NCBI RefSeq assembly: GCF_053078305.1
Contig: NZ_CP166879.1
Length of the DNA stretch: 64,000 nucleotides
Reading direction: 5' to 3' (one strand)
Part shown: in pieces, positions 46,405 through 46,976 of the stretch
Layout of the letters: each line of letters opens with the position of its first letter
How positions within the stretch are numbered: position 1 is the stretch's first letter
Translations under genes and position numbers: made by a program
The notes under the pieces: model-generated
What the model saw: only the letters and a program-made list of their open reading frames with translations
Database searches by the model: none
Told to the model about the DNA's origin: nothing

Positions 46405-46413
46405 CAATACCGA

Positions 46414-46433
46414 CCGGCAGGTTTCCCTGCCGG
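46414..46433. terminator. GC-rich hairpin between convergent cargo genes (possible bidirectional terminator)
   Basis: CCGGCAGG-TTTC-CCTGCCGG, an 8-bp stem with a tetraloop. Flanking U-tracts are weak on both strands. Confidence 0.45.
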
Positions 46434-46442
46434 GTGAATTTG

Positions 46443-46613
46443 TTAATGCACGTTTTGTGTATTTTCCCTCCGGGGAGAACAGGCAGGACATATCAGCATC
46501 CTGAAACAGGAAGCATTTTTTGGTTTGTATGTCTTGCCATTTTGAGATCGAGAACGGCGATAGATGAGCTGTAAGGGAGTCTTACAGGCAGGGCAAACAG
46601 GCTCTTTATCCAT
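46443..46613 (-). CDS. small zinc-ribbon protein (56 aa)
   Basis: ORF-track 46443-46637. The second ATG at 46613 follows AAGGAG. MDKEPVCPACKTPLQLIYRRS...CFRMLICPACS has two CPAC pairs about 27 aa apart. Confidence 0.5.
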   Translation of the reverse strand: MDKEPVCPACKTPLQLIYRRSRSQNGKTYKPKNASCFRMLICPACSPRRENTQNVH

Positions 46614-46721
46614 GATAAAGATCTCCTTTTTATGCATCTCTGCTTTACAGGAGACCGGGGAATATCATAGGATACGCCACGAGCTCGAAGTAAAGCATTG
46701 ATGCAAGTTTTTACAGATTGA

Positions 46722-46757
46722 CCCAGCATAGTTCCAGCTATGCTGGGTTTCCCTTTT
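46722..46757 (+). terminator. strong rho-independent-terminator-like hairpin, plus-strand orientation
   Basis: Perfect 10-bp stem CCCAGCATAG / CTATGCTGGG (46722-46731 and 46738-46747), 6-nt loop, followed by TTTCCCTTTT. Confidence 0.6.
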
Positions 46758-46951
46758 ATGTAGTATCCTGTTGATTTGAAACATACTACATATACGCGCG
46801 ATCCTACCTTCACTGTATAAAAAGTCAATAAAATGATCATTTTATGATCGTTTTCACCACCTAACTCTTCGTTTCTTTAAGTAAATAATCACCGCCCTGA
46901 ATCATTGTTGATGACTTTTAAATCTATTTGTTGTATCAATTAAACAAATCG

Positions 46952-46976
46952 AATCGATCGTTTTTGTCGATCGATT
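46952..46976. promoter_or_regulatory. GATC-containing inverted repeat upstream of com (candidate Dam-sensitive regulatory site)
   Basis: AATCGATCG-TTTTTGT-CGATCGATT with 9-bp perfect arms, each holding a GATC (46956-46959 and 46969-46972). It lies 44 bp upstream of the com ATG. Confidence 0.4.

Follow-up and report, generated by a model that had tools for sequence, protein, structure and literature searches.

A hairpin beside com-mom in Sp18-type Mu-like prophages is probably part of a conserved folded leader of small leftward genes

In hok/sok, zorO/orzO and tisB/istR, a small open reading frame (ORF) stands behind a long structured leader and is accompanied by a cis-antisense RNA. A GATC site overlaps the -10 element of the sense promoter pIN of IS10. 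Phage morons are autonomous promoter-gene-terminator units which are inserted between phage genes. The mom gene is cytotoxic and tightly guarded, with control by Dam, OxyR, C, Com and Fis, and phage Mu also carries a divergent promoter, momP2, that overlaps the mom promoter Pmom (PMC3378877). Here we describe a locus that can be compared with all of these systems. It comprises positions 46405-46975 of a 64,000-nt stretch of contig NZ_CP166879.1 (RefSeq assembly GCF_053078305.1), which is called the window throughout, and lies in an Sp18-type Mu-like prophage between the cargo operon DUF6645/DUF1378/DUF826 and Pmom-com-mom.

An original prediction, made from the letters of the window, had described this region as an AT-rich module in which a 56-aa zinc-ribbon ORF with a good Shine-Dalgarno (SD) sequence, AAGGAG, is overlapped out of frame for about 120 nt by a 115-aa ORF on the same minus strand, with a perfect 10-bp hairpin and a T-rich tail inside the latter. 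All of these elements were found again. The GC content falls to 0.33-0.37 over 46700-47000, compared with about 0.45-0.52 in the flanks; the zinc-ribbon ORF runs from 46613 to 46443; the 115-aa ORF (46493-46840, minus strand) overlaps it by 121 nt; and the hairpin with its tail (46722-46757) is more stable than expected by chance. With a probability of roughly 0.6, we interpret this hairpin as the second stem-loop (SL2) of a conserved, folded 5' leader of about 180 nt, which belongs to a small minus-strand unit arranged back-to-back with Pmom in Sp18-type prophages. In leftward order this unit would consist of a promoter with a GATC site at the -10 element, SL1, SL2, SL3, the AAGGAG motif, an ATG in a hairpin loop, a cargo ORF and a terminator-like hairpin shared with the convergent DUF826 gene.

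SL2 reads CCCAGCATAG (46722-46731), the loop TTCCAG, CTATGCTGGG (46738-46747) and then TTTCCCTTTT (46748-46757) on the plus strand. An inverted-repeat search found arms of 11 nt with 100% complementarity, and the stability of -22 kcal/mol (z = -4.3) was reached by none of 200 dinucleotide shuffles; further folds of the hairpin gave -17.9 kcal/mol and z values down to -5.9. The hairpin (core 46722-46747, extended 46720-46749) forms a hypervariable patch (46705-46757) together with a 15-nt spacer and a linker or tail (46750-46757), which is purine-rich in the minus sense (AAAAGGGAAA) and belongs to TTTCCCTTTT in the plus sense. Alleles were compared among 33 loci from E. coli genomes, viral contigs and metagenomes. 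The patch contains at least 33 variable columns, compared with 0-3 per 25 nt elsewhere in E. coli alleles which are otherwise about 99% identical. Five stem types were distinguished, all of them hairpins of about -17 to -22 kcal/mol; their 5' and 3' arms are given here in the minus (zinc-ribbon) sense. T1, the allele of the window and the commonest type (about 82% of records), has CCCAGCATAG and CTATGCTGGG; T2 has CCCAGATAG and CTAT-T-CTGGG with one bulged base; T3 has GGTCCAGATAG and CTATCTGGACC; T4, from Salmonella, has ACCCGGTAG and CTACCGGGT; and T5, from a third lineage, has CCCCC-G-CATAG, again with one bulged base, and CTATGGGGGG. When the alleles were aligned in register, 98% of the cells were paired and 6 of the 10 pairs had changed on both sides. 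None of 500 shuffles scored as high, and sliding the partner strand lowered the pairing to 20-40%. Because the stem has been rewritten in five alleles and yet stays paired, this comparison indicates that SL2 is maintained as a structure and that its pairing is under selection.

The original prediction had called the hairpin a textbook intrinsic terminator. Its stable, GC-containing stem agrees with that description. The U-tract does not, as it is broken by CCC in T1 (UUUCCCUUUU), and the terminator score d of d'Aubenton-Carafa reaches only +4.3 in the plus sense, compared with +25 to +36 for the controls trpA t, rrnB T1, lambda tR2 and oop. The other types scored still lower in this sense (T2 -50/-34, T3 -27, T4 -22), and the tail of T5 reads CACCCUUUAUG. 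In the zinc-ribbon sense d was below -30 in all alleles scored, none of which is terminator-like on the minus strand. Judged by these scores, terminator character is not maintained among the alleles, and T1 is a marginal plus-strand terminator. A cassette of about 79 nt, comprising linker, SL2, spacer and the 5' arm of SL3 and equivalent to 46690-46770 of the window, was also seen in tandem in eight E. coli loci (L032, L015, L019, L020, L025, L026, L061 and L062) and in L059 of the third lineage. The duplication always joins two different hairpin types (T1 with T2-like, T2 with T2-like or T5 with T4-like).

The leader would be transcribed from a predicted sigma-70-type promoter on the minus strand (46800-46849), with the -35 element TTGACT (46828-46823), a 16-nt spacer and the -10 element TAGGAT (46806-46801). 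Hexamers and spacing are kept as TTGACT-16-TAGGAT in the window and in T3, TTGACT-16-TAAGAT in Salmonella and TTGACG-16-TATAAT, with a perfect -10 element, in the third lineage (L059/L060). The sequence of the spacer has diverged meanwhile, and the single-nucleotide polymorphisms (SNPs) of E. coli alleles lie in the spacer or downstream of the -10 element. In a sequence comparison, such a pattern is the classic signature of a real promoter. The predicted transcription start site lies at about 46794 on the minus strand, from which a leader RNA of about 180 nt would extend. GATC sites were observed at 46803-46800, where the site overlaps the -10 element (TAGGATC), and upstream of it at 46835-46838 and 46846-46849; the -10 site is kept in Salmonella (TAAGATC) and lost in the third lineage (TATAATC). 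By analogy with pIN of IS10, the leftward promoter may be sensitive to Dam methylation.

The whole leader folds with -70.7 kcal/mol, compared with -42.7 +/- 4.5 kcal/mol for shuffled sequences (z = -6.2), and the three dyads together reach z = -7. RNAalifold recovers SL1, SL2, SL3 and the hairpin at the ATG. SL1 (46757-46792, minus strand), at the predicted 5' end of the transcript, consists of TATGTAGTAT, 16 nt and ATACTACATA with arms of 100% complementarity. These arms are kept in all three lineages (E. coli, Salmonella and the third), and the loop is unrelated in sequence and similar in length. SL3 (46634-46704, minus strand) is a 71-nt imperfect dyad (z = -5.4 to -5.8). It is better conserved than any other element of the locus, and the junction of the cargo swap falls on its left end. 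It contains an anti-SD sequence, GGUCUCCU (46656-46649), that is complementary to the SD region AGGAGAUC. Identity to Salmonella amounts to 86% for SL3, 86% from the SD to the start-codon hairpin, 78% for the whole leader and 58% for the zinc-ribbon coding sequence, so that in this alignment the non-coding leader is better conserved than the cargo protein.

A 17-codon upstream ORF in SL3 was considered and rejected: it is open in two lineages, has no SD, and 4 of its 17 residues differ between those lineages in our reading of the alignment. No complementarity was found between the leader and the com-mom mRNA. In one E. coli strain (OkiPb01685, locus L005) an 8-nt duplication, CTACATAC, at the 3' arm of SL1 and the predicted start (equivalent to 46792/46793) lengthens the 5' end of the leader. 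An Rfam scan at permissive E-values returned only sub-threshold matches, all of them dyad artefacts, with tsr24 as the best (19.9 bits against a gathering threshold of 50, E = 0.08). Literature searches found no description of a leader element at this locus, and ECs4996 and ECs4997 gave no match.

Behind the leader, the minus-strand ORF encodes a 56-aa zinc-ribbon protein with four cysteines (CPAC...CPAC; 46443-46613, ATG at 46613-46611, stop at 46445-46443). In its translation initiation region (46603-46628) the SD sequence AAGGAG (46628-46623) lies 9 nt upstream of the ATG, which itself is placed in the loop of an 8-bp hairpin, TCTTTATC/GATAAAGA (46603-46621). The start region is 86% identical to that of a Salmonella ortholog, in which a C-to-U change preserves the pair as U.G. 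The frame is open in all 33 loci. Moreover, 7 of the 12 SNPs in the body of the gene are synonymous in the zinc-ribbon frame, compared with 22% expected (binomial p = 0.007); in the competing frames this applied to 2 of 12 for the 115-aa frame and to 3-4 of 12 for the remaining four frames, again with about 22% expected. Since the ORF is open in every locus, shows a synonymous excess and has a syntenic ortholog in Salmonella, the comparative evidence identifies it as a genuine gene and as the sole frame with coding evidence among those studied. An alternative in-frame ATG upstream at 46637, which would give a 64-aa form, is a less likely start than 46613, as it lacks an SD and has no conserved counterpart in the other cargos.

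In a phmmer search of 1.84 billion representative proteins with the 56-aa query, one relative was found besides variants of the locus itself, namely a 53-aa protein of Salmonella enterica (P0032; 47% identity, E = 2.7e-7). Cysteines C7, C10, C42 and C45 are invariant between the two proteins in an alignment with 48% identity. The gene of P0032 lies at the same site of other Mu-like prophages, divergent from com-mom or from com and a cytosine methyltransferase, with an intergenic region of 390 nt, and it has a strong terminator of its own (d = +32.8). In the window the corresponding position between the convergent ends of DUF826 (46404) and the zinc-ribbon gene (46443) is taken by the hairpin CCGGCAGG-TTTC-CCTGCCGG (46414-46433), which resembles a terminator on either strand, its U-tracts being weak (plus strand d = -26, zinc-ribbon sense d = -11). 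The AlphaFold2 model of the zinc-ribbon protein (predicted local distance difference test 70) has a beta-hairpin between two knuckles and represents a generic zinc ribbon; every Foldseek match to the Protein Data Bank had E > 1. No Pfam, NCBIfam or PADLOC family was assigned to the protein, with a Trm112p-like match (E = 0.005) below the cut-off as the best, and the small proteins of the locus gave nothing informative against Pfam, PHROGs, NCBIfam and PADLOC. In Salmonella locus L056, three co-oriented genes (100, 81 and 122 aa; 5338-6274) follow the zinc-ribbon gene, the last with a weak PADLOC match to PD-T4-7 (E = 0.0025). They may form an operon of accessory or defence type at the end of the prophage nearest to mom.

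Three unrelated cargo ORFs were found behind one and the same promoter and leader, each with its SD and ATG at an equal distance from SL3. In some E. coli prophages the zinc-ribbon segment is swapped from about 46634 leftwards, and the alternative cargo comprises a 66-aa gene on the plus strand, with 13 of 18 SNPs synonymous, and a 68-aa ORF on the minus strand, with 9 of 16. The 68-aa ORF begins with the same ATGGATAAA as the zinc-ribbon gene, at an equal distance from SL3. In the third lineage the same leader stands before an unrelated 102-aa ORF. None of the cargos (56, 68 and 102 aa) matched known families or defence systems. Because one leader serves three unrelated ORFs, and does so in at least two genera, the sequences suggest a regulatory platform and not a gene-specific untranslated region (UTR).

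In E. coli 102651 (locus L031, 3110-3479) and its relatives the 66-aa and 68-aa ORFs converge with an overlap of 38 nt, in which each of the four SNPs is silent in the plus-strand gene and changes an amino acid of the minus-strand ORF. Locus L033 is a natural derivative which lacks the whole block. It was considered as a marker of the module boundary and rejected, as our reading of the alignment suggests a deletion between short AATCACC repeats.

Taken further, the leader could be a portable riboregulatory platform of Mu-like prophages that gates interchangeable small accessory proteins beside the lethal mom gene, with the SL2 patch as a cis-antisense specificity cassette; we regard this extension as speculative and rather doubtful. 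If it were true, the patch would resemble the incompatibility determinants of plasmids and let each of several co-resident Mu-like prophages control its own copy independently of the others, and the tandem double cassettes would be dual-specificity alleles. The zinc-ribbon protein could then bind the hairpin RNA as a partner, or it could act as a toxin or an anti-defence effector.

How might such a leader work? We propose that it sets the amount of cargo protein as a device for translational and stability control. SL1 would act as a cap at the 5' end of the transcript, and SL3 would be the switch, which sequesters the anti-SD sequence and thereby leaves the ribosome-binding site (RBS) usable. 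Opening of SL2 and the 5' arm of SL3 would free the anti-SD sequence to pair with the SD, and translation would be off. When 46757-46680 were forced to be unpaired in a fold of the window's allele, the effect expected of an antisense RNA over SL2 and the 5' arm of SL3, an anti-SD:SD helix formed; the unpaired probability fell from 0.49 to 0.00 for the SD and from 0.98 to 0.03 for the AUG. The most likely opener would be a cis-antisense RNA of about 75 nt which starts at a TTTACA-18-TAGGAT site in SL3 and ends at or near SL2. SL2 would then be either a required structural spacer or the recognition element and 3' hairpin of this RNA. Both the switch and the antisense RNA are predictions.

Several observations weigh against the interpretation of the hairpin as part of a leader RNA. 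A simple structural role does not account for the divergence of about 40% in SL2 and its flanks, given that the alleles are about 99% identical elsewhere. In Salmonella the same anti-SD helix forms, but most of the SD is paired already when the leader is free, which makes the switch less clear in this allele. SL1 and SL3 show conservation of sequence and no significant covariation (89% of the cells are paired in SL3), and they may be promoter or operator DNA instead of RNA helices. The helices consist almost purely of Watson-Crick pairs and fold equally well from either strand. When G.U pair types were counted against A.C pair types, the minus sense had 10 and the plus sense 7 (p = 0.31). With a neutral wobble test and Watson-Crick stems, the folding could belong to either strand or to DNA. 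If the leftward promoter serves the cargo ORF, however, the minus-strand RNA necessarily contains SL1 to SL3. On the side of the cargo, C7Y removes the first zinc ligand in three E. coli alleles, one alternative-cargo allele has an ATG-to-ATA change, and the common Sakai-type allele carries a +1 insertion just after the canonical ATG which frameshifts that start. The insertion itself creates an in-frame ATG 4 nt downstream (MKEPVC..., 55 aa), 13 nt from the SD. The persistence of alleles with a damaged start or ligand implies that selection on the cargo is not absolute.

The most serious competitor places the primary function of the hairpin on the plus strand, as the 3' hairpin or terminator of a cis-antisense RNA of about 75 nt that starts at about 46680 and controls the leader of the minus-strand mRNA. 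The hypervariable patch would then be a specificity region for co-resident prophages. This reading is compatible with the leader and we consider it possible but unlikely. Among its three options the original prediction had listed the 3' end of a small, possibly antisense RNA here, and this option gains some support from a promoter-like site about 50 nt upstream of the hairpin: TTTACA (46644-46649), 18 nt and TAGGAT (46668-46673) on the plus strand, a scan match in three alleles. Its hexamers and spacing recur in all three lineages with changes at 5-9 spacer positions, and the apical loop bases of SL3 that belong to the -10 element are conserved. Because the hexamers sit in conserved SL3 stems, however, the fact that they are kept does not count as independent evidence. 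The body of the predicted RNA (about +26 to the 3' end) corresponds to the hypervariable patch, genomes carry up to four copies of the locus, and opening of the would-be binding region is predicted to occlude the SD. T1 is a marginal plus-strand terminator and no allele is one in the other sense, but the U-tract is poor in T2-T5 (d = -22 to -50), so that the RNA would not end at the hairpin in these alleles and would run towards Pmom. The wobble test likewise showed no preference for the plus strand.

Published data on Sp18 RNAs count against this reading. Cross-linking and analysis of cDNA (CRAC) with Hfq in strain Sakai lists only one Sp18 RNA, EcOnc37, on the minus strand about 0.9 kb upstream and hence away from the hairpin (PMC4104026). 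This Hfq-bound RNA was assigned to 5077340-5077410 of NC_002695.1, minus strand (Tree et al. 2014, PMC4104026). It maps to about 45785-45855 of the window, an uncertain mapping owing to a genome-version offset, where it would be antisense to the region near the 3' end of DUF6645 or to the DUF6645-DUF1378 spacer. The paper on HnrS deals with Sp9/10/12 and not with Sp18.

An insulating role is improbable in our view. According to this proposal, the hairpin stops rightward transcription from the cargo or late operon, or transcripts that read through the first hairpin downstream of DUF826, before com-mom is reached. The cytotoxicity and heavy guarding of mom (PMC3378877) would give such a terminator a purpose, and the hairpin is plus-oriented and lies upstream of Pmom. 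The commonest allele, T1, also has the best U-tract; in alternative-cargo alleles no other terminator separates the hairpin from the real 66-aa gene that lies upstream of it on the plus strand; and some Mu-like prophages of Yersinia and Serratia carry an ordinary terminator upstream of com. The terminator scores are nevertheless negative in four of the five alleles despite strictly kept pairing, and the upstream genes point the opposite way in the Salmonella prophage. An insulator would also leave SL1, SL3, the leftward promoter and the hypervariability unexplained. The suggestion that the hairpin is the ancestral terminator insulating Pmom fared no better, since Mu has nothing between gin and Pmom and the natural deletion derivative lacks the block. 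That no plus-strand ORF ends at the hairpin holds only in part: a 45-aa ORF (46564-46701) ends 20 nt before it, although this ORF has no good SD and its frame is broken by the extra C of the Sakai-type allele.

We also give little credence to an element acting at the level of DNA, in which the dyads would be protein-binding or cruciform sites, for example as operators of divergent promoters that overlap at the apex of SL3. The equal folding of both strands, the neutral wobble test and the conservation of SL1 and SL3 by sequence and not by covariation all agree with such an element, and -35-like and -10-like hexamers are arranged symmetrically on the two strands of SL3. Template-switch 'correction' is an established mutational mechanism that can yield compensated changes in perfect palindromes without selection. 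The arms of SL2, however, stay paired even though their sequence and length (10, 11 and 9 bp, with bulges) differ between types, which fits a nucleic-acid hairpin better than a sequence-specific dimer site. Furthermore, the loop of SL1 is free to vary, and no candidate binding protein co-varies with the SL2 type; T1 accompanies two different cargos and also two variants of the C site.

A resemblance to type I toxin-antitoxin modules had been pointed out as well. It is confined to the architecture: a small ORF, here the toxin, would be silenced by the structured leader and a cis-antisense RNA, and the leader, about 180 nt long, shows higher conservation than the ORF and has a candidate antisense promoter and a potential for RBS occlusion. 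The products do not fit. The zinc-ribbon protein is basic, rich in cysteine and without a hydrophobic or transmembrane segment, and the 68-aa and 102-aa cargos likewise look soluble and not hydrophobic. Other ORFs can take its place behind the leader, alleles persist in which the start codon or a zinc ligand is damaged, no toxin-antitoxin or defence family was matched, and the antisense RNA is putative. A type I system is therefore very unlikely.

The long frame, finally, is where our reading departs from the existing annotation. The NCBI Prokaryotic Genome Annotation Pipeline annotates 46443-46905 as one frameshifted pseudogene that covers both overlapping ORFs. In O157 Sakai an intact ORF of 154 aa, ECs_4996, occupies this stretch, and the window differs from it by two single-base indels. 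Across the 33 loci the long frame appears as 154 aa fused to the zinc ribbon, as 135 or 137 aa in the other frame, as 115 or 78 aa from a late start, or as 56 aa stopping at the hairpin. A single-T indel at about 46871, in the AT-rich spacer, moves its start. Synonymous SNPs amount to 2 of 12 and 5 of 13 in this frame against about 22% expected, as in other frames, and upstream of 46613 no frame stands out (about 20% expected). The DNA for the N-terminus of the long ORF has 44% identity to Salmonella and is unalignable, and the ORF is truncated in Salmonella and absent in the third lineage. Since the frames are incompatible between alleles, show no synonymous excess and are lost in diverged lineages, sequence comparison marks the 115-aa ORF and its 154-aa form as an accidental open frame over the promoter, the leader and part of the zinc-ribbon gene, and not as a gene. 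ECs_4996 clusters with 205 identical or near-identical members, and PHROG 26524, which corresponds to the 135-aa form, is the sole PHROG and was built from this locus. Searches of 5.8 billion and of 1.84 billion proteins returned no homolog outside the locus, only frame variants of it.

That a real 115-aa or 154-aa protein is encoded here and the hairpin is coincidental, as in the RefSeq annotation and one option of the original prediction, is hardly credible: the intact Sakai ORF, its 205-member cluster and the PHROG speak for it, but the frame is neither conserved in diverged lineages nor under purifying selection, which appears in the 56-aa frame instead, and the hairpin itself is selected for.

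With regard to its setting, the locus belongs to the right end of the prophage, where gin is followed by DUF6645 (43829-45886), DUF1378 (45944-46123), DUF826 (46159-46404, plus strand), the region described here, com, mom, the prophage end and araF. com (47020-47220, ATG at 47020) and mom (47174-47911) lie on the plus strand. The Pmom control region with the start of com (46937-47022, plus strand) is 85% identical to its Salmonella counterpart and contains the GATC palindrome AATCGATCG-N7-CGATCGATT at 46952-46976. Between it and the leftward promoter lies a non-conserved AT-rich spacer (46856-46936; 44% identity to Salmonella, or 37% with gaps counted). A 23-nt inverted repeat (46896-46918/46984-47006, 78% complementary) flanks the GATC/OxyR-type Pmom region, with its right arm reaching the SD of com.

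In phage Mu the gin stop codon abuts the GATC/OxyR region of Pmom, and 46937-46975 of the window aligns with that junction. The stretch from the gin stop to about 46936 thus represents a cargo insertion relative to Mu. This insertion of 3.2 kb between gin and Pmom, absent from Mu, holds the leftward unit, and the alignment of the Mu junction contains no counterpart of the hairpin. Between gin and Pmom, 43829-46404 encodes a DUF6645 esterase-like protein (685 aa) together with DUF1378 and DUF826, a NanS-p-like cassette in a combination familiar from the late regions of Shiga toxin (Stx) phages. In E. coli AST198 (L033, NZ_AP043606.1, 3634-4840) and in Salmonella (L056, 3398-4610) com is followed by an overlapping DNA cytosine methyltransferase (PF00145) in place of mom. 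Because the methyltransferase overlaps com as mom does, the sequences suggest that Com-dependent translational control has been transferred to another DNA-modification enzyme in such prophages.

The 571-bp region was found at 258 places in 216 of 5,426 complete E. coli genomes, with up to four copies per genome and with com adjoining at every place inspected. The three-dyad block alone was found at 259 places in the same 5,426 genomes, essentially the same set. A miniature inverted-repeat transposable element or another dispersed repeat (repetitive extragenic palindromic elements, enterobacterial repetitive intergenic consensus and similar) was rejected, as every copy of the block inspected adjoins com in a Mu-like prophage. 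A BLAST search of 50,697 phage records returned just two Stx-phage records which carry an inserted Mu-like phage, and Mu and D108 gave no match at the DNA level. Among mom-anchored loci of 21 other species no homolog of the module was found, only unrelated ordinary terminators in Yersinia and Serratia, and two looser pattern scans of viral contigs detected no lineage beyond the three.

For annotation this means that ECs_4996 and the "frameshifted hypothetical protein" pseudogenes at 258 places are probably not genes, an annotation which has been propagated through RefSeq and conceals a real unannotated 56-aa zinc-ribbon gene. The promoter and the leader of about 180 nt with its covarying hairpin add a conserved non-coding element beside a classic toxic phage gene under multilayered control. 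Data from differential RNA sequencing (dRNA-seq), 3'-end mapping (Term-seq; PMC7547250) and Hfq and RNase E CRAC exist for the enterohaemorrhagic E. coli strain Sakai and could address the proposed transcripts.

Compared with intrinsic terminators, the hairpin of the window has the GC-containing perfect stem of 10-13 bp, the loop of 4-6 nt and the T-rich plus-strand 3' flank, but its U-tract in TTTCCCTTTT is interrupted and the score is marginal, and it is negative in other natural alleles although the stem is conserved. The zinc-ribbon protein resembles Com (Pfam Zn_ribbon_Com), which is likewise a small four-cysteine zinc-ribbon protein encoded next to mom in the same prophage, and by this analogy the nearby conserved RNA hairpin could be its ligand. 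In contrast to Com, however, its CxxC motifs are 31 residues apart instead of 16, and no sequence relationship and no Zn_ribbon_Com match was detectable. As in the mom region of Mu, leftward transcription is predicted beside a C-dependent, Dam-controlled Pmom with GATC sites at the promoter, and the GATC palindrome of Pmom aligns with that of Mu. Unlike momP2, which overlaps Pmom, reads into gin and has no known product, the promoter described here lies about 190 bp further left and has near-consensus hexamers of its own, a structured leader and a real small gene.

Similar to hok/sok, zorO/orzO, tisB/istR-1, IS10 RNA-IN/RNA-OUT, lambda OOP and P22 sar, a small ORF follows a long folded 5' UTR with a candidate promoter on the opposite strand; the predicted RNA of about 75 nt would be mostly one stable hairpin, and occlusion of the RBS is predicted. 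No similarity to these named systems was found at the sequence level or in the Rfam scan. They also differ from the locus in that the antisense RNA is predicted here, the U-tract is weak or absent in most alleles, there is no hydrophobic toxin and the cargo is interchangeable. Like a phage moron, the unit is a self-contained, AT-rich promoter-gene-terminator arrangement on the strand opposite to its neighbors and varies between related prophages. Here, however, conservation lies in the promoter and the 180-nt leader instead of the gene, and three unrelated ORFs are plugged in behind them. A structured leader, possibly under antisense control, is a familiar kind of element, and the promoter-leader platform at this site is a previously undescribed one.

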